Positions 8 to 38,530 of a stretch of DNA of 64,000 bases are shown here, one piece after another. How positions within the stretch are numbered: position 1 is the stretch's first letter; each line of letters opens with the position of its first letter. The position numbers were made by a program, and so were the translations under genes. The DNA is taken from positions 5,343 to 69,342 of the forward strand of contig JAYQOT010000003.1 in assembly GCA_038144955.1 (NCBI GenBank), written 5' to 3'. The stretch comes from Burkholderiales bacterium. GTDB taxonomy: Bacteria; Pseudomonadota; Gammaproteobacteria; Burkholderiales; SG8-41. The notes beneath the pieces are model-generated. The model was given only the letters and a program-made list of their open reading frames with translations. It was not told where the DNA came from and did no database searches.

Positions 8-1099
8 CTAGGCTTTCGCGCCGAGCTGGAGCGCGCGGTCTTTCGATGCTTTCAGGCTGTCCGGTGTCGCGCTGCCGGTCCAGCCAAGCACGTTTTTCAG
101 TGTGATGTCGGTCAATGCGTGGATCCAGTCGTTGCGCTCGTTGAGGCAGGGGATATAGTGCAGTTCCTTGCCGCCGGCCTTGAGGAAATCGCCCCTGGCT
201 TCGATCGCGATTTCTTCCAGCGTTTCCAGGCAGTCGCTGACAAAGCCGGGACAGGTAACATCGACGCGCGGAATTTTCTTTGTCGCGAGTTCCTTGAGCG
301 TTTCGGAGGTGTACGGTTTAAGCCATTCGGCGCGGCCGAAGCGCGACTGGAAGGTGATGGTGTAGAAATCCGGCTTCAGCCCGATCTGCTCGGCGATCAG
401 GCGGCCGGTTTTCAGGCATTCGCAGTGGTAGGGGTCGCCGAGTTCGAGCGTGCGCCGCGGCACACCGTGGAAGCTCAGAACGAGGTGGTCGCCGCGGCCG
501 TGCTTGAACCAGTAGTCCTGGATATTCTGGGCAGAGGCCTTGATGTAGGCGTCGTGGTCATGGAAGTGTTTCACCGTGCGCAGCGCCGGCTGGTTGCGCA
601 TGCTGGCGAGGGCGTCGAATGCAGCCTTGAATACGGTGGCGGTGGTACTCGCGGAATACTGCGGGTACAGCGGTAGCAGCAAGATGCGGTCGCAGCCTTG
701 CGCTTTCAGGGTTTTGAGTTTTGTATCGATCGAAGGTTTACCGTAACGCATCGCGTAGTCGACGACATGGGGCTGCTTCAACCGTTCCCCCAGGTAGCCG
801 CGCAGCAGGTTGGCCTGGCGTTCGGTGTGCACTTTCAGCGGCGAACCCTCGTTGGTCCAGATCTGCGCGTAGCGCTGCGCCGAAGCTTTCGGCCGCAGGG
901 TCAGTACGAACAGGTTGAGAATCACCCACCACACCGGACGCGGGATTTCGACGACAAAAGGGTCGGACAGGAATTCACGCAGGTAGCGGCGTACTGCACC
1001 GGGAGTCGCGGCATCGGGGGAGCCGAGGTTGATCAGCAGGATGCCGATCTTCGGCTGCGTGCCGTGGGCAAAAGACGGTTCTTTGGTGAAGGGGCCCAT
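8..1099 (-). CDS. hemH: ferrochelatase
   Basis: 363-aa ORF. N-terminus [38 protein letters not shown] is the classic ferrochelatase signature region, and the length is typical. Confidence 0.9.
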
Positions 1100-3199: not shown

Positions 3200-3369
3200 T
3201 CCTCAAAATCCCTGTGCTTGAAATGAATTCGTTGCGCGCGGAGTTTATCCCGGTGTTTCCCCCGGGATTCCTCCTCGCCTTGCCCTCGTGTAATGTCTCG
3301 TCGAAGCCTCGCGCGCTCCTTGTCCTGCCTGCGCTCGGACAATTTTGAGAAGGGTTCAGCGATAACAAT

Positions 3370-5028
3370 ATGCTCGTTCGTCTCGTCATCCAGGATTTCG
3401 TCATTGTCGAGCGCCTCGAACTCGAGTTCGGCTCCGGCTTCACGGTCTTGACCGGCGAGACGGGCGCGGGCAAATCCATATTGATTGATGCACTGGCGCT
3501 GACGCTGGGAGAACGTGCGGAAGCCATCGCAGTGCGGCAGGGCGCGAGCAAGGCGGATATCACTGCCGAGTTTGCAGTCGACGGCAACCAGCCGCTGCGG
3601 ACCTGGCTCGATGCCAGCGATCTTGCCGGCGACGAAGGCGTTTGCCTGTTGCGCCGGGTCATCGAATCTTCAGGGCGTTCGCGCGGTTTCATCAACGGCC
3701 ATCCGGCAACCGCTGCGCAGCTGCGGGAAGCCGGCGATTTCCTCGTAGATATCCACGGCCAGCACCAGCACCAGTCGTTGAGCCGGCCCGGGACGCAGCG
3801 CGCGCTGACCGATGGTTACGGCGGTCTTGAGGCGCAGGCGGTGCAGGTTGCTGACCTGTGGCGGACGTGGCAGCGGCGGCGCGAGGAGCGGCTTGCGTTC
3901 GAAGGCAATGCCGCCGCCATTTCCGCGGAGCGCGAACGGCTGGAATGGCAGTTGCAGGATCTTGATGCGCTGAAGCCCGTTCCGGGGGAATGGGCTGCGG
4001 TGGGTGCCGAGCATGCCCGTCTCGCCCATGCGGCCAGCCTGATCGAGGCGGCGCAGTCCGGCGTGGAAATGCTGTCCGAGGGGGAGGGGGCCGCACTGGA
4101 ACAGTTGAACGCGGTCATTGCCCGGCTGCAACCGCTGCTGCAGCACGATATGCGGTTGAAGGACATTCTCGATGCGCTGGAACCGGCGCAGATTCAACTG
4201 CAGGAGGGAGTCAGTGCGCTGCGTCGTTACGGCGAACGCACTGATCTTGATCCGCAGCGCCTGAAAGAAGTGGAGCAGCGTCTTGATGCTCTGCACAGTG
4301 CGGCGCGCAAGTACCGGGTTGACCCCGAGGCGTTGCCGGAACTCATTGAGCATGTCCGCGAACGCCTGGCAGAGCTCGCTGCCGGTGGTGATCCGCAGAC
4401 GCTGCGCAGGCGCGAAGCGGAAGCCGAGGCTGCTTATACAGAGGCGGCGAAGAAACTGACAGCTGGAAGAAAAAAGGCTGCAAAGAAGCTGGGTGAAGCG
4501 GTAACGGCTGCGATGCAGGACCTGGCGATGCAGGGCGGACGGTTCGAAGTGGCGCTGGAGGCGGTGGAGACACCCGCGGCGTACGGGCTCGAGCAGATCG
4601 AGTTCCGGGTGGCTCCGCACAAGGGCATGACGCCGCAGCCGCTGGCCAAGACCGCTTCCGGAGGCGAACTGTCGCGGCTCTCGCTGGTGATCCAGACGGT
4701 ATTAAGCCGCCTGGCACAGGTGCCGACGCTGATTTTCGACGAGGTGGATGCCGGCATCGGCGGCCGCGTGGCCGAAATCGTCGGCCGCATGCTCAAGGCG
4801 CTGGGGGCAAAACACCAGGTGATGTGCATCACCCACCTGCCGCAGGTGGCAGCCGCAGCGGACCGGCAATGGCGGGTGAGCAAATCCGCAGCTCGCGGCA
4901 AGACCACTTCCACCGTGGAGGCACTGGAAGCCCGTGCGCGGGTCGAGGAAATCGCGCGCATGCTCGGCGGCGTGAAAATCACCGATACCACGCGCAAGCA
5001 CGCGGCCGAACTGCTCGGCGGGAAATAA
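3370..5028 (+). CDS. recN: DNA repair protein RecN
   Basis: 552 aa with N-terminal Walker A (LTGETGAGKSILIDAL), a long coiled-coil middle and a C-terminal SMC signature (ASGGELSRLSL...LIFDEVDAGIGG). Confidence 0.95.
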   Translation: MLVRLVIQDFVIVERLELEFGSGFTVLTGETGAGKSILIDALALTLGERAEAIAVRQGASKADITAEFAVDGNQPLRTWLDASDLAGDEGVCLLRRVIESSGRSRGFINGHPATAAQLREAGDFLVDIHGQHQHQSLSRPGTQRALTDGYGGLEAQAVQVADLWRTWQRRREERLAFEGNAAAISAERERLEWQLQDLDALKPVPGEWAAVGAEHARLAHAASLIEAAQSGVEMLSEGEGAALEQLNAVIARLQPLLQHDMRLKDILDALEPAQIQLQEGVSALRRYGERTDLDPQRLKEVEQRLDALHSAARKYRVDPEALPELIEHVRERLAELAAGGDPQTLRRREAEAEAAYTEAAKKLTAGRKKAAKKLGEAVTAAMQDLAMQGGRFEVALEAVETPAAYGLEQIEFRVAPHKGMTPQPLAKTASGGELSRLSLVIQTVLSRLAQVPTLIFDEVDAGIGGRVAEIVGRMLKALGAKHQVMCITHLPQVAAAADRQWRVSKSAARGKTTSTVEALEARARVEEIARMLGGVKITDTTRKHAAELLGGK

Positions 5029-31867: not shown

Positions 31868-32938
31868 TTAGGCGGCCTTGCTCCGGTTCTTTTCCAGCCA
31901 GCCATCCACCAGATTCACGGTCGTATCAACGACCGATGATTGCATGCCCTTCTGGGCGGCAATGGTCTTGACCAGGCGATCAACGCGTTCGATGTTTGGT
32001 GCGCCCGCCGCGAGTGCTCGGGCTGCCGACGACGGGCTGCCCAGCGACAGGGCAGCATTGGCGTATTTCTCGAACGGGACCAGGTCTTTTTCGTTGGCAC
32101 CCAGAGAAACGCACAATTTGACCACCCAGTTGTAGACAGTGCGCGTGGCATCGATATCACTGTGCACGGCATCCTTGATCGGCCGCATTTCGTTTTTTTG
32201 CACGCAGCGGTAGTTGCCGGCAATCAGCATGGCCCATTTCGCCAGTGGCACGAATACCGAGTCATGTACTTTGAGCTTGACCGGCAATTCGATTTTCTTG
32301 CCGTCGCCCGGATCGAAGCGTACGGCTTCGATGTCGGCTTCGAGCTGGCGCAGGATCGCGGTGTGAGCGTCGGAGTCAAAGCGTGCGGATTTGAAATTGG
32401 TCGGCAGCCGGACTTGAAGTACGTTGACTTTTTCTTCAGGGGGACGGAATGCCTGGGGGTCGGGACTGCACAGCGTCAGTGTTTTCGGGTCAAAGCTGTC
32501 CCATACTGATGCGTCGGTATAGCAGTCCCGGCAGCCATCGGCGTTCAGCCCGGGGATACGCTTCAGATAGGGCAGCGGCGGCATGTTCATGATCGACATG
32601 CACGGAACGCGGGATTTGGCCACTTTGTCGAGCAGTTCGCGGACTCCCGGGGAGCGATATTGTGGCTCCTGCATGGCAAGAACGATCAGATCATAGTCCG
32701 CGGGATTGGCTGAATCAGGGCCGCCTGCCGTAAGCTTTCCGGGCAGGTCGCGGGAACGGATTTCAACGAGACCCTCACGGCCCTTGATCGGCATGCGCAC
32801 GATCGCGCCTTCAGAATTGAACAGTTCGGCTTCAGCCGGCAGACAGATCATCTTGACGGTATGTCCGGCCAGCAGCAGTTTGGTTGCCAGCAACGAGCCA
32901 TAGGAGGCGCCCAGAATCAGGATCTTATACGTGCGCAT
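31868..32938 (-). CDS. putative NAD(P)-binding oxidoreductase (ketopantoate-reductase/ApbA-like N-terminus)
   Basis: N-terminal beta-alpha-beta KILILGASYGSLLATKLLLAGHTV; the remainder is unrecognised. Start moved to ATG 32938. Confidence 0.45.
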   Translation of the reverse strand: MRTYKILILGASYGSLLATKLLLAGHTVKMICLPAEAELFNSEGAIVRMPIKGREGLVEIRSRDLPGKLTAGGPDSANPADYDLIVLAMQEPQYRSPGVRELLDKVAKSRVPCMSIMNMPPLPYLKRIPGLNADGCRDCYTDASVWDSFDPKTLTLCSPDPQAFRPPEEKVNVLQVRLPTNFKSARFDSDAHTAILRQLEADIEAVRFDPGDGKKIELPVKLKVHDSVFVPLAKWAMLIAGNYRCVQKNEMRPIKDAVHSDIDATRTVYNWVVKLCVSLGANEKDLVPFEKYANAALSLGSPSSAARALAAGAPNIERVDRLVKTIAAQKGMQSSVVDTTVNLVDGWLEKNRSKAA

Positions 32939-33238
32939 TCTCGATACTTTCCTTTTGAAAAAATTGGAGACCGCCGGAAGCGGGAAGCAGCGGGGTCTAA
33001 GGATGTTGCAATCCCCGACAGCAAGCAGTACAGCGGCTATGTTAGTCAGTAAGCCGCTCTGGTGCAACGAGACATCACCAAGTGAAATCGCGTGGCGCAG
33101 GACATTGCGCACTGCAAAATCATGGTTAACTGATCAAGGTTCGATGGCTTGCCATTGGAGGCCGCAAAGATGCAGCAAAATTACGATTCTCGGGGGCTGT
33201 GGCATCGCATCGCAGCATGACAGCCAGTTTGAACAGGC

Positions 33239-34225: not shown

Positions 34226-34456
34226 GGCGGGGAGTAGGGGTGAATGTCGAAATCAACTATATATGATTACGCGATTACCATGCTTTCTAATACAACGGTG
34301 GACGAAGAATGACAAGTGTGTGCGACCAGAATCGTCTTGCAGTCACGCAAATACAACGCCCGGAATGGCTCTTGCCGCTAACACTTCTGCAGAATTTCCT
34401 CACCAGCAAGGGTGAGCATCATTGCGGGGATGCAATTGGGAGGTGGCAGATGTTGT

Positions 34457-35404: not shown

Positions 35405-35413
35405 TGCTGAATC

Positions 35414-35446
35414 CTTTAAAAGAAACGGCGCGGGGAGCCGCGCCGT
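35414..35446 (-). terminator. rho-independent terminator after the LysR gene
   Basis: On the minus strand: ACGGCGCGG-CTCC-CCGCGCCGT followed by TTCTTTTAAAG. It ends about 10 nt before the FAH ribosome-binding site. Confidence 0.5.
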
Positions 35447-35524
35447 CCGTGGTTACGCGTGATAACCGGCATTTTAATATCCAGGAACGCCTTCCTTCCA
35501 GTTTCTGCGCTAGTTTGAGCGTGT

Positions 35525-36472
35525 TCAGGGCATTGCCAGGTGATCGAAAACCAGCGTTTTTGCGGTCTTGCGGGTGAAATCCATGAATCCCTGGGCGATA
35601 ACCGGCAATTGCTTGCCTACTGGGTAGGCAAAGACCCAGTTGCGCTCGACCGGCAGACCGTCAACGTCCAGCACGGCCAGTTTCTCATGTGACATGTCCA
35701 GGCCCAGCGTGTAACGGGACATGATCGACACGCCGAGCCCGGCGATGATGGCTTGTTTGATGGCTTCGTTGGTGGACAACTCCATTCGTATATCGGGCTT
35801 GCACCCATGTTCCTGGAATACCTTGCTGGCAATCATGCGTGTGCCGGAGCCGGGTTCCCTCATCAGGAACGGCTCTTCGGCGAAACGTGCGAACGGAATT
35901 CCTTTTTCTTTGGCGAGAGGGTGTTCAGCATGGGCATAGGCCACCATCGGATTCGGGAGTATGACCTGGGTTACCACGTCGATGTCATCAGGAGGGCTGG
36001 CGAATATGTACAAGTCATCCATGTTCAGGGTCATGCGCTCGATAAGGGTGGCCCTGTTGTGGATCTGCAACGACACCTCGATATCGGGATGCTGTTTGAC
36101 GAATTCGGCCAGTACGCGGGGCGCAAAGTACTTTCCGGTGGTGCTGACCGCAAGTTGCAGTCTTCCGCTCTTCATGCCACGCAGATTGTCCAGCTCACGG
36201 CTGGTTCCAGTCAGTACATCGAAGATTTCCGTGCAGGATTCATGCAGAACGCGACCGGCGTCGGTCAGGTGTATGCGTTTGCCGATCTGTTCGGTCAGCG
36301 GCATCCCTACCGTCTCACTGAGTTTTTTCATTTGAACCGATACCGTAGGCTGTGCCATGTAGAGTTCTTCGGCGGCTTTGGTATAGCTGCCCAGTCGGGC
36401 AACGGCTTCGAAGACGGAGAGTTGCGGCAGCAGGCCATGCTTGATGAAGCGGCGGATGTTTGCCTGAGACAT
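35525..36472 (-). CDS. LysR-family transcriptional regulator (CbbR-like sequence)
   Basis: HTH LPQLSVFEAVARLGSYTKAAEELYMAQPTVSVQMKKLSE plus a LysR substrate-binding domain. Start at ATG 36472 preceded by AAAGGAAC. Confidence 0.9.
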   Translation of the reverse strand: MSQANIRRFIKHGLLPQLSVFEAVARLGSYTKAAEELYMAQPTVSVQMKKLSETVGMPLTEQIGKRIHLTDAGRVLHESCTEIFDVLTGTSRELDNLRGMKSGRLQLAVSTTGKYFAPRVLAEFVKQHPDIEVSLQIHNRATLIERMTLNMDDLYIFASPPDDIDVVTQVILPNPMVAYAHAEHPLAKEKGIPFARFAEEPFLMREPGSGTRMIASKVFQEHGCKPDIRMELSTNEAIKQAIIAGLGVSIMSRYTLGLDMSHEKLAVLDVDGLPVERNWVFAYPVGKQLPVIAQGFMDFTRKTAKTLVFDHLAMP

Positions 36473-36572
36473 GTTGTTCCTTTCGTTACGAGCTAAATTG
36501 TCCACCGCACCCTCCGCAAATGCGGAAGGCGCGACCTTCACCTCGAATGGACGACAGCCGGTTTACGGCCAT

Positions 36573-36722
36573 AAAAAAAGACCTCGCCCATTCAGGCAAA
36601 GGTCTCGCTCGCAACGACAGGACCTGGGTATGTCGGACTGCCAGCCACCCCGGGAACAAGCATAGTTCCGAATTGACGAGACGGCTAACGCCGGTTTCCC
36701 GGCTGAGCTACTCCCCTTTGGA
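36573..36722 (-). promoter_or_regulatory. yybP-ykoY (Mn2+) riboswitch-like leader with overlapping intrinsic terminator
   Basis: Minus-strand RNA reads CAAAGGGGAGUAGCUCAGCCGGGAAACCGGC..GUCUCGUCAAUUCGGAAC..GUUCC..CGACAUACC..GCGAGCGAGACCUUUG. Conserved L1 block GGGGAGUAGC, GUCGUCAAU block and 3' GAGACC are present, and P1 is CAAAGG/CCUUUG. The terminator AGACCUUUGCC-UGAAU-GGGCGAGGUCU plus U7 (36573-36605) shares the ACCUUUG strand with P1. Confidence 0.75.
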
Positions 36723-37082
36723 GGGAGCGCGCATAAATAAATATGCGCACCTGAGTATTAAAGCATGCCATTTGTGTCATGGCAAGTCGTAAAGGTTTTT
36801 GGTCCGCGCTGGCATTGATATTACAAAAAGTAATCAAAAGCATTTTTGGATGGCATGAAAACCCGCCGGGTAGCCTGCTCCTGGCCCTTCGAATCTTCCA
36901 TTTTTATGTGCATTACATTTTCTGATTAGTCGTATTGCGAGTTATCTGAAATTTTGTGATGAGTAATGCTGAAGATTGCAAACTTTCATTTCACTTCTGA
37001 TGTCGACGTGTTGATAATTCGGCCGTGCGCAGTAGCAGGCGCATGCAGTCGCGAGAGGTTGTTCGAGTGACTGCGGTTGTTG

Positions 37083-37223
37083 CCGGGGGAGTAGCTTCAG
37101 CGGCGCAGGCAGAAATTGCGTCGTCAGCGGTGCGGTCGTCAATACGGGTAATACCCGGTCGCACCGGCAGCCTTCAGTGGTGCAAGCGAGACCAGGTTGC
37201 GGGCACGCGGAAACGCGGCGTGC
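37083..37223 (+). promoter_or_regulatory. yybP-ykoY (Mn2+) riboswitch-like leader upstream of the TerC-family gene
   Basis: CCGGGGGAGUAGCUUCAG..GGUGCGGUCGUCAAUACGGGUAAUACCCGGUCGCACC..GCAAGCGAGACCAGG carries the same three conserved blocks as the minus-strand copy. P1 is weaker (CCGG/CC-A-GG) and the last hairpin is shorter. It is followed by the hairpin GCACGC..GCGUGC. The genomic context (TerC family) is canonical. Confidence 0.6.
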
Positions 37224-37252
37224 AATTTGATCTCTTACTTGAAGGAGGAAGC

Positions 37253-38530
37253 ATGGAGTTACTTTCAACTGAGTTTCTTTCCGCCCTGCTGGCCATTGTC
37301 ATCATCGACCTTGTTCTGGCCGGCGACAATGCCATCGTCATTGCGCTGGCGGCGCGGAACCTGCCTGATAATCTGCGTAAGAAGGCGATCATCTGGGGTA
37401 CCTTCGGTGCTATTGCAGTGCGTACCGTGATGACGCTGGCCGTGGTCTGGCTGCTGAAGATTCCCGGATTGTTGCTGGCTGGCGGGGCGTTACTGGTGTG
37501 GATTGCCTACAAGCTGCTGGCCGACAACGATGGTTCCCACCACGAGGTCAGTGCCGCCGGCAATTTCTGGGGCGCCATGAAAACCATCGTGGTTGCAGAT
37601 GCCGTGATGGGGCTGGACAACGTGCTGGCTGTTGCCGGCGCGGCGCACGGCAGCTTCCTGCTGGTGGTAATCGGTTTGCTGATCAGCATCCCGATCGTGA
37701 TCTGGGGCAGCACGCTGATTCTTCATTACGTCGAACGCTTTCCCTCCATCGTTTATATCGGTGGCGGCGTGCTGGCGTGGACATCTGCCAAGATGATGGT
37801 CAGCGAGCCATTGGTCAAAGATTACCTTGCCGCCAGCGGTTTTCCGGTGGTGTTGATCTATGCCATCGTCATGCTGGGCGTTCTGGGTGCCGGTTTCTGG
37901 GTGAACCATGCCCGTGCCCGTGCCCGAGTGGCGGCGCATCTGGTCGATCTTGCCGCCACACCCGAAGTAAATTCCGTTTCAACTCATTCAGCTGTTCCTG
38001 CCAACCTGCAAGGAGGTGTCAAAATGGTCAAGATTCTCATTCCGGTAGATGGTGGCGCAAATGCGCTGAACTCGGTGCGTCATGTGGTCAACCGCTTCCT
38101 TGCCAACCCTGCCATGGAAGTGCACCTGCTGCATGTGCGCGAGCCGCTTTCTCAACACATTGCCCGTTTTGTCAGCCGTCGTGACCGTGAGGCATTTCAC
38201 CGGGCAGAGGCCGAGCGTGCACTGCAACCGGCGCGTGACCTCCTCAATCGCTTCGGGGTGCCGCACGCTGACCATATCGAGCTTGGGGACAAGGCGACAA
38301 CGATCCACCGTGTTGCGCAGCGCCTGCGTGTTACCCAGATCGTAATGGGCACAGCACGCAAGAATTCGCTCACCCGCATGCTTGAAGACTCGGTCACCAA
38401 CAAGGTGCTTGAACTGGCGCAGGTTCCGGTGGAGGTGGTGGCTGGGCAATCCGTATCGAAGCTGGAAAAGATCGGCGTACCGGCCGGAGTAGGGGCGGCC
38501 ATGGCATTACTGATTGTAGCGGTGGATTGA
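37253..38530 (+). CDS. TerC/YjbE-family membrane protein fused to a C-terminal universal stress protein (UspA) domain
   Basis: N-terminal about 235 aa has the paired DLVLAGDNAIVIA and MGLDNVLAVAG TerC motifs. The C-terminal about 150 aa (KILIPVDGGANALNSVRHVV...IVMGTARKNSLTRMLEDSVTNKVLELAQVPVEVV) is a USP fold, followed by a final hydrophobic segment. RBS GAAGGAGG precedes ATG 37253. Confidence 0.85.
   Translation: MELLSTEFLSALLAIVIIDLVLAGDNAIVIALAARNLPDNLRKKAIIWGTFGAIAVRTVMTLAVVWLLKIPGLLLAGGALLVWIAYKLLADNDGSHHEVSAAGNFWGAMKTIVVADAVMGLDNVLAVAGAAHGSFLLVVIGLLISIPIVIWGSTLILHYVERFPSIVYIGGGVLAWTSAKMMVSEPLVKDYLAASGFPVVLIYAIVMLGVLGAGFWVNHARARARVAAHLVDLAATPEVNSVSTHSAVPANLQGGVKMVKILIPVDGGANALNSVRHVVNRFLANPAMEVHLLHVREPLSQHIARFVSRRDREAFHRAEAERALQPARDLLNRFGVPHADHIELGDKATTIHRVAQRLRVTQIVMGTARKNSLTRMLEDSVTNKVLELAQVPVEVVAGQSVSKLEKIGVPAGVGAAMALLIVAVD

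Follow-up and report, generated by a model that had tools for sequence, protein, structure and literature searches.

We analysed a window of 64,000 nucleotides from a Burkholderiales bacterium (GenBank assembly GCA_038144955.1, contig JAYQOT010000003.1, positions 5,343 to 69,342), and found that its minus strand carries an aptamer of the yybP-ykoY (Mn2+-type) riboswitch class in the leader of a gene encoding a LysR-type transcriptional regulator. Our preferred reading, to which we assign a probability of about 0.75, is that a Mn2+-type ON riboswitch, in which the closing helix P1 competes with a terminator, sets the level of this LysR protein in the window. The aptamer belongs to a known class; the LysR output and the RNA-then-protein architecture that would result are what is new. 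In the reviews and surveys consulted, the described outputs of Mn riboswitches are exporters, TerC proteins, P-type ATPases, and membrane proteins, all acting directly on metal levels, in agreement with the statement of a first-pass annotation of the window (made by a model from the sequence alone) that the known outputs are transporters and membrane proteins. The literature surveyed, which did not extend to the supplementary gene lists of the founding papers (Dambach 2015, Price 2015), describes no transcription-factor gene preceded by a yybP-ykoY riboswitch. In the matches retrieved, the term LysR co-occurs with the riboswitch only via reference lists, LysRS, or unrelated genes.

Family membership was established with two covariance models. 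The first, R1, was built from an alignment of 40 local betaproteobacterial elements collected by two conserved blocks. It identified exactly two copies in the window, the element of the LysR leader (36595-36722, minus strand, 80.8 bits) and that of the divergent TerC leader (37080-37199, plus strand, 76.3 bits), and it also found the Escherichia coli alx riboswitch directly upstream of alx (locus L073, 2374-2501; 42.4 bits, E = 2.7e-8). The second, R2, was built from TerC-leader aptamers of other genomes and E. coli alx. Since it includes neither LysR-leader nor window sequences, circularity is removed. R2 found the LysR-leader element at full length with 54.8 bits (E = 4.9e-12 in the 64-kb window), the TerC-leader copy with 89.4 bits (E = 1.1e-20), and E. 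coli mntP at E = 0.006. Judged by its homology to validated members, the LysR-leader element is a member of the yybP-ykoY family. A candidate third aptamer at 34229-34237 on the plus strand was rejected: it consists of GGGGAGTAG without a 3' block, is matched by neither R1 nor R2, and is a chance 9-mer. This chance GGGGAGTAG sits between the genes encoding the Vgb-lyase-like protein and the FAA-hydrolase.

Aptamers of the yybP-ykoY class are defined as four-way junctions of the helices P1 to P4, of which P1 and P3 contain internal loops (PMC9495176). Folded alone, the LysR-leader aptamer forms such a four-way junction at its minimum free energy (MFE), with P1, an inner P1 helix, a GAAA-capped P2, P3 with its internal loop, and P4. 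Its parts are the L1 block GGGGAGUAGC, the capped P2, P3 with the internal loop CGUCAAUUCG, P4, and the 3' block AGCGAGACC. On the minus strand, AAAGGGGAGUAGC occupies 36719-36707 and GAGACCUUUG 36606-36597, and P1 is formed by CAAAGG (36720-36715) paired with CCUUUG (36602-36597). The first-pass annotation had placed this P1 and a GCCGG-GAAA-CCGGC hairpin here, and both are found at the claimed site. It had also quoted three aptamer blocks, of which the first and third are as quoted whereas the middle one reads CUCGUCAAUUCG in the window and not GUCGUCAAUUCG, the form found in most orthologues.

The same junction was recovered by RNAalifold consensus folding of 23 orthologous leaders and of 50 sequences. 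Among the 23 leaders, 14 of 33 pairs show compensatory changes, and paired cells amount to 98%, versus 31-48% in controls with slid partners. The covariation score is 0.322, versus at most 0.097 in the slid controls, and none of 500 shuffles reaches the observed values. Among 50 LysR-associated aptamers drawn from genomes and metagenomes, compensatory pairs rise to 21 of 35. The L1 and L3 blocks GGGGAGUAGCU, CGUCA, and AGACC are invariant: in their longer form (GGGGAGUAG..., ...CGUCA..., ...AGAGACC) they do not vary in the 40 local aptamers of three classes or in the 50 LysR-associated ones, and they are also common to E. coli alx in the model alignment. We take these nucleotides, mapped by homology, to be the metal pocket of the solved Mn riboswitches.

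The linkage of the aptamer to LysR is conserved. A search for orthologues of the LysR protein, with one genome per species, gave 24 loci with 65-84% identity, all from metagenome-assembled genomes of uncultured Burkholderiales or Betaproteobacteria. Among the 23 loci with enough upstream sequence, 22 carry the aptamer on the same strand as LysR, at positions -237 to -249 relative to its start codon, and a census with the covariance models confirms this count. No aptamer was found at more distant LysR relatives (48% identity or less). We then scanned metagenomes for the aptamer signature and obtained matches in at least 120 contigs, from which 81 aptamers in 80 loci were classified. Among the matches listed, 43 of the 74 assessable aptamers precede a LysR homologue on the same strand (49-82% identity), 11 precede TerC-family genes, 20 precede other genes, and 7 of the 81 run off the contig. 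Because the pattern searched for came from the LysR leader, this proportion of LysR genes is biased upward; the bias leaves untouched the absolute LysR count and the extent to which the LysR proteins diverge. The other genes behind the same type of aptamer in metagenomes encode the classical outputs of the class: TerC proteins, P-type cation ATPases, Na/Ca-exchanger-type proteins, and other transporters. Strong comparative sequence evidence of this kind supports the core reading, already put forward in the first-pass annotation, that the output of the riboswitch class here is the LysR regulator. One metagenomic aptamer (L076, 541-670, minus strand) has atypical arms, and the LysR homologue downstream has an in-frame stop near its N-terminus (RRYLRH*TLPQL), possibly reflecting a pseudogene or a sequencing error.

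Some distant metagenomic leaders are compact. The ATG lies 25-29 nt after the aptamer in L148, L127, L108, and L105, and 34-38 nt after it in L136 and L149. In these six leaders the Shine-Dalgarno sequence (SD) falls within the anti-P1 arm (GGGCGAGGUG, GGGCGGAGG, GGGCAAUGGAG) or directly adjoins it, a standard design for a translational ON switch.

In the window, the aptamer is followed by a terminator with a 10-bp stem interrupted by one bulge (dG -13.6 kcal/mol) and then U in 7 of 8 bases. The motif CCUUUG is common to the 3' strand of P1 and the 5' arm of the terminator, which makes the two structures mutually exclusive, and when downstream sequence is added to the fold the terminator replaces P1. 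This is the layout that had been proposed from the sequence, with the shared CCUUUG, the hairpin, and the U7; the ribosome-binding site and the LysR ATG were likewise correctly placed about 100 nt past the terminator. The terminator hairpin is kept in 23 of 23 orthologous leaders, and RNAalifold on the expression platform returns this invariant hairpin only, with no covariation.

These elements suggest the following mechanism. At low metal, P1 would not be held shut, and CCUUUG (inside GACCUUUGCC) would pair with GGGCGAGGUC to form the hairpin that precedes U7. RNA polymerase would then stop near 36573, about 100 nt short of the LysR ATG. At high metal, L1 and L3 would dock round the ion and P1 would be stabilised during transcription, which would block the terminator and let LysR be transcribed, as in an ON switch. 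In the distant relatives, where the competing arm carries or abuts the SD, the same logic would act on translation. We infer that Mn2+ is the ligand and that read-through of the terminator depends on it. In the Mn riboswitch of Lactococcus lactis, Mn2+ stabilises P1.1, and this keeps strands of the overlapping terminator from invading the helix as transcription proceeds (PMC11087558).

Several results weigh against this reading. The Rfam model of the class, RF00080, has no match at its gathering score in the whole window and none at E <= 10 in 36300-37500 (cmscan), and no Rfam family at all reaches its gathering score anywhere in the window. The first-pass annotation had named the lack of an RF00080 match above threshold as a refutation; the match is absent, and positive controls show that the check is not diagnostic. 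The copy of the model that we used spans 177 positions; it lacks a closing P1, and its 3' part is long and unstructured. The validated E. coli mntP leader (L001, 2462-2558) receives 41.6 bits from it, short of the gathering score of 45, the validated alx leader goes unreported at E <= 1, and none of the aptamers in four related loci is reported. Since the same copy misses alx and scores mntP below threshold, the result is uninformative, and we regard it as a false negative of this model copy. P1 itself is invariant and hence offers no covariation, so that the compensatory changes anticipated in orthologous LysR loci are seen in the other helices but not in P1. The invariance of P1, L1, and L3 is neutral on the pairing of P1, yet it is as expected for nucleotides of a ligand pocket and a switch. 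One orthologous locus, L012, is the only one without an aptamer in the LysR leader. It also lacks the terminator after LysR and has the aptamer of an Alx-type TerC gene at -266 on the opposite strand. Its LysR is still 77% identical, which suggests a secondary loss of the aptamer.

Two further points concern the switch itself. Over the whole predicted leader, the OFF fold has -80.6 kcal/mol versus -69.2 kcal/mol when P1 is forced. It is thus favoured by 11.4 kcal/mol, and with the 5' flank present the MFE structure no longer contains P1. In the OFF fold, GGGGGAG of L1 is base-paired to a conserved CUCCCUC immediately 5' of P1. Since nearest-neighbour energies favour the OFF fold, the ON state would depend on co-transcriptional tertiary folding that requires ligand and Mg. 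The second point is the U-tract, which has at least 6 U in 8 positions in 12 of the 23 leaders (window included), 5 in 5 leaders, and at most 3 in 6 leaders. As the tract is poor in 6 of 23 leaders, intrinsic termination is not a universal read-out. Moreover, a conserved distal box about 45 nt downstream can form a duplex with GAGACCUUUGCC of -15.2 kcal/mol, versus -13.5 kcal/mol for the terminator arm and -7.5 kcal/mol for P1, and it pairs with the 3' strand of P1 in the MFE structure of 11 of 17 leaders. With degraded U-tracts and a second anti-P1 box, termination may not be the sole or even the main read-out.

These last observations also favour the alternative that survives best, which we nevertheless consider unlikely: in the clade of the window, the decisive step would be translation initiation, Rho-dependent termination, or mRNA stability, acting via the second anti-P1 box, with the hairpin serving mainly as a structural competitor. 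The hairpin is universal while the U-tract is not, the distal box pairs more stably with the 3' strand of P1 than the terminator arm does, distant relatives sequester the SD, and E. coli mntP joins a translational riboswitch to Rho-dependent termination (PMC11647493). Against this, the window has a textbook hairpin with U7, and the mean predicted accessibility of the SD over the 23 leaders is alike whether P1 or the hairpin is forced (0.45 versus 0.41). A relay in which a conserved GUCCGUYCG box would act as an anti-SD for LysR and let go of it in the Mn-bound state was considered, and these accessibilities leave it unsupported.

A second alternative, which we hold to be less probable still, accepts that a riboswitch of yybP-ykoY fold controls LysR and replaces the signal: in place of Mn2+, it would sense a different divalent metal, such as Ca2+, or else alkaline pH by way of its folding kinetics, as E. 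coli alx does. In the literature (PMC12934788 among others), the class includes members that respond to Ca2+, namely Streptococcus pneumoniae mgtA, or to alkaline pH, namely E. coli alx. Genes of the Na/Ca-exchanger and P-type ATPase types follow the same aptamer signature in metagenomes, and ligand specificity cannot be read from sequence. Mn2+ is favoured by the neighbouring aptamers, which control TerC genes of the YjbE and Alx types, E. coli Alx being annotated as a Mn2+ exporter, and by the invariance of the L1 and L3 nucleotides of what we presume, from homology to the crystal structures, to be the metal pocket.

Finally, we find it very improbable that the aptamer and terminator form a short RNA in their own right (left over when the TerC leader was duplicated in inverted orientation, or acting in trans or as a decoy) and that LysR, not controlled by the riboswitch, has its own promoter in the spacer: a strong terminator does stand 100 nt ahead of the LysR ATG, the spacer does hold a conserved box, and identical cores of about 85 nt in L022 and L024 do indicate exchange between inverted copies, but neither a scan nor a reading of the sequence finds a promoter-like site in the 100-nt spacer, whether of sigma-70 or sigma-54 type, the distance from aptamer to ATG is fixed (-237 to -249 in 22 genomes), compensatory upkeep of the aptamer while LysR diverges to 49% identity is unexpected for a functionless duplicate, and the six distant leaders with the ATG 25-38 nt past the aptamer and the SD in or beside the anti-P1 arm leave no room for an independent promoter, so that this explanation falls away in those lineages and becomes unlikely in the window.

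Returning to the riboswitch-controlled LysR gene, its leader reads, on the minus strand from 36785 to 36470, as predicted promoter, 5' hairpin, aptamer, hairpin with U7, 100-nt spacer, SD, and LysR ATG (Table 1).

Table 1. Features of the LysR and TerC leaders and of the adjacent genes, in window coordinates.
Feature	Coordinates	Strand	Evidence or details
Intrinsic terminator after LysR: GGCGCGG-CUCC-CCGCGCC (35441-35425), then T-rich tail UUUCUUUU	35415..35441	-	Terminator scan
LysR-type transcriptional regulator, 315 aa	35525..36472	-	Pfam HTH_1 and LysR_substrate
SD GAAAGGA (36484-36478) and LysR ATG (36472-36470)	36470..36484	-	Sequence
Conserved downstream box GUCGUCCAUUCGAGGUGAAGGUCG (...CGAGGUGAAGGUCG)	36532..36555	-	Platform alignment; complementary to the P1 3' strand and the terminator 5' arm
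Expression platform: GACCUUUGCC-UGAA-UGGGCGAGGUC (36604-36580) and U7 (36579-36573)	36573..36604	-	Terminator scan
yybP-ykoY (Mn2+-type) aptamer, 128 nt	36595..36722	-	Four-way junction; MFE, covariance models, covariation
5' leader hairpin GUGCGCAUAU-UUAU-UUAUGCGCGC	36727..36750	-	MFE fold; directly after the predicted transcription start site
Predicted sigma-70-type promoter of the LysR leader	36757..36785	-	-35 TTGCCA (36785-36780), 17-nt spacer, TG-extended -10 TTTAAT (36762-36757)
Perfect palindrome ATTAC-N5-GTAAT (TTA-N7-TAA, T-N11-A), candidate LysR operator	36820..36834	.	Centre about 77 bp upstream of the predicted transcription start site of the leader
TerC-side control region: dyad GTAAT-N7-ATTGC (36963-36979) and promoter-like TTCACT-N17-GATAAT (36990-37018)	36963..37018	+	Promoter scan
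Second yybP-ykoY aptamer, TerC-Usp leader	37080..37199	+	R1 76.3 bits, R2 89.4 bits
YjbE-type TerC membrane protein with a fused universal stress protein (Usp) domain	37256..38530	+	Pfam TerC 163.6 bits, Usp 66.2 bits

A promoter-like arrangement of the form TTGTCA/TTGCCA-N17-T(G/T)TAAT is kept at equal distance in the orthologous LysR leaders. The consensus promoter scanner is silent on the site of the window, whose -10 has a T at position 2. Transcription would start near 36750, giving a leader of about 280 nt. A GC-rich hairpin follows the predicted start site in all orthologous leaders, with differing sequences. At the other end, CGAAAGGA-N5-7-ATG is kept in the LysR orthologues, and their tblastn alignments begin at LysR residue 1. 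An upstream open reading frame (ORF) or an N-terminal extension of LysR was considered and rejected: orthologues keep neither the in-frame GTG at 36541 nor the ATG that follows the U-tract, and L002, for example, has a stop codon.

The downstream gene had been assigned to the LysR family, and both of its domains exceed the Pfam cut-offs (HTH_1, PF00126, 65.8 bits versus 26.6; LysR_substrate, PF03466, 164.4 bits versus 28). The best NCBIfam match is CbbR (NF045990) with 233 bits, which does not reach the cut-off of 450. On these profile scores, the protein is a CbbR-like LysR-type regulator and not the equivalog of any named regulator. The same NCBIfam profile scan revealed no recognisable metal-sensor signature in it. 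The gene was also said to be monocistronic, and this agrees with the terminator found after it: in most orthologous loci a ACGGCGCG-loop-CGCGCCGT hairpin with a U-run lies just before the SD of the FAA-hydrolase gene. The region between the two genes (35405-35524, minus strand, in the window, and the corresponding spacers of L002-L024) contains a conserved CTGGAA...CGTAAAATA, a promoter-like -10, then the terminator and the FAA-hydrolase SD. If CTGGAA...CGTAAAATA is a promoter, the FAA-hydrolase gene would lie behind a leader terminator, a possible attenuator.

LysR-type regulators use operators of the form T-N11-A, and the palindrome upstream of the leader promoter has this form. The relaxed box ATYAY-N5-GTAAT occurs in 30 of 65 regions upstream of LysR leaders, versus none of 64 coding controls and an expectation of 0.09 from shuffles. 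Among the metagenome leaders listed, it occurs in 16 of 41 LysR-associated ones versus 1 of 38 others (Fisher p = 6e-5). The conserved ATTAC-N5-GTAAT ahead of the LysR promoter is thus a candidate operator, to which the LysR protein itself probably binds. In L015 (about 3245-3757), a tandem duplication of about 155 nt in the divergent intergenic region includes the ATCATTTCTCGTAAT box, and the candidate operator is thus present twice.

The gene divergent from LysR had been described as a TerC-family gene with its own copy of the riboswitch, and both parts of this description stand: the TerC-Usp protein scores 227.4 bits on TIGR03717 ('R_switched_YjbE'; cut-off 134.8), and R1 and R2 both match at 37080-37199. 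TerC-Usp is the canonical kind of Mn-riboswitch output. The conserved synteny comprises the genes for PPase, TerC-Usp (divergent), LysR, FAA-hydrolase, the Vgb-lyase-like protein, and a conserved ORF of 414 aa. This last ORF (31868-33112, minus strand, in the window) has no NCBIfam match and encodes the most conserved protein of the neighbourhood, with 82-93% identity across orthologous loci. TerC-Usp is missing in L012, L017-L019, and L021, where the divergent neighbour is an Alx-type TerC gene behind a shorter aptamer without P2. Hence, LysR is divergent from a riboswitch-gated TerC gene, of the YjbE-Usp or the Alx type, in every locus that extends far enough.

This shorter aptamer measures about 96-101 nt, has no P2 hairpin, forms P1 from GAAGG/CCUUC, and precedes Alx-type TerC genes of 318-341 aa. 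It lies on the minus strand of L003 (1000-1098), L004 (1683-1781), L012 (3649-3749), L017 (1069-1165), and other loci. As it may occur besides the other two copies, some genomes hold three yybP-ykoY copies within 3 kb. In L022 (3747-3881, plus strand, and 3360-3476, minus strand) and L024 (854-992, plus strand, and 473-589, minus strand), the aptamers on the LysR side and the TerC side are identical over a core of about 85 nt, a pattern that suggests gene conversion between the inverted copies and also an origin of the LysR-leader aptamer by inverted duplication of the TerC leader. Just downstream of TerC-Usp in L004 (2040-2120, minus strand) there is a weak Rfam match to anti-hemB (Burkholderia RNA 7; 30.5 bits versus a gathering score of 49.5, E = 0.002).

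The same type of aptamer also lies, in metagenome contigs, directly ahead of genes for proteins of about 460 aa with N-termini resembling signal peptides (L077, 266-1663, minus strand; L109, 9536-10918, plus; L123, 3588-5021, plus; L134, 42-1430, minus; L147, 975-2369, plus; L129, 463-999, plus). One of them, L077, has no Pfam match. The family may represent an uncharacterised output of Mn riboswitches.

LysR may also act on the divergent TerC exporter gene, itself gated by the second copy of the riboswitch. The TerC-side dyad abuts the -35 of the TerC promoter, and dyad and promoter are kept in the loci carrying TerC-Usp, which makes the dyad a candidate LysR operator. Elsewhere in the window, the dyad GCAAT-N7-ATTAC has 2 matches versus 2.5 expected, i.e., it occurs at chance level, and the significance of the TerC-side dyad therefore rests on its positional conservation only. 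The conserved gene arrangement and the candidate operators are compatible with a feed-forward circuit. The LysR regulon, and every LysR target within it, would have to be read in the same conditional way. In its most ambitious form, which we put forward tentatively and think doubtful as a whole, riboswitch and LysR would constitute a composite Mn-responsive transcription factor: the RNA would sense the metal and set the dosage of LysR, and LysR would be autoregulated via the palindrome and control a Mn-stress regulon including the divergent TerC exporter, whose mRNA would in turn require its own riboswitch copy to be ON, in the manner of a coherent feed-forward AND gate.

The system can be compared with several known ones. 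It resembles L. lactis yoaB and Bacillus subtilis yybP and ykoY in its four-way junction, in its L1 and L3 blocks, and in having the 3' strand of P1 within an intrinsic terminator. Unlike in those switches, the output is a LysR-type transcription factor and not an exporter or membrane protein, and the leader adds a distal anti-P1 box and a 5' CUCCCUC able to pair with L1. The aptamers are also homologous to those of E. coli alx and mntP, which act on translation, and the compact LysR leaders of metagenomes similarly use sequestration of the SD by the anti-P1 arm. Like E. coli mntP, the TerC exporter gene would have both a protein regulator and a riboswitch. The regulators of mntP, MntR and Fur, sense metal themselves, whereas here an RNA would gate the synthesis of the regulator. 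Precedents for such a cascade exist with other ligands: B12 riboswitches act on the Eut and Pdu regulators in Enterococcus and Listeria, and cyclic di-GMP (c-di-GMP) riboswitches lie upstream of transcription-factor genes. In all these cases an RNA sensor sets the activity or the level of a regulator that controls more genes, and it is the class of ligand that differs here. Finally, the LysR protein shares HTH_1 and LysR_substrate with CbbR regulators, and its candidate operator TTA-N7-TAA fits T-N11-A. It differs from CbbR in its score (233 versus 450 bits), in the lack of RuBisCO genes nearby, and in being flanked by TerC and FAA-hydrolase genes.

A transcription factor as the output would let an RNA sensor control a whole regulon, and would give Mn homeostasis two tiers in these bacteria, RNA first and then protein. 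The two platform designs, terminator and SD sequestration, provide a natural system for studying how one aptamer is rewired to different read-outs. The analysis also defines a LysR family with a predictable inducing condition and a candidate operator for target finding, in an arrangement that is frequent in environmental contigs and thus testable. Surveys relying on an RF00080 model such as ours would under-count the riboswitch family and overlook its association with LysR. If the composite transcription factor outlined above is true, an RNA-then-protein cascade would replace protein metal sensors such as MntR in a widespread lineage of uncultured Burkholderiales and related soil, sediment, and freshwater bacteria.

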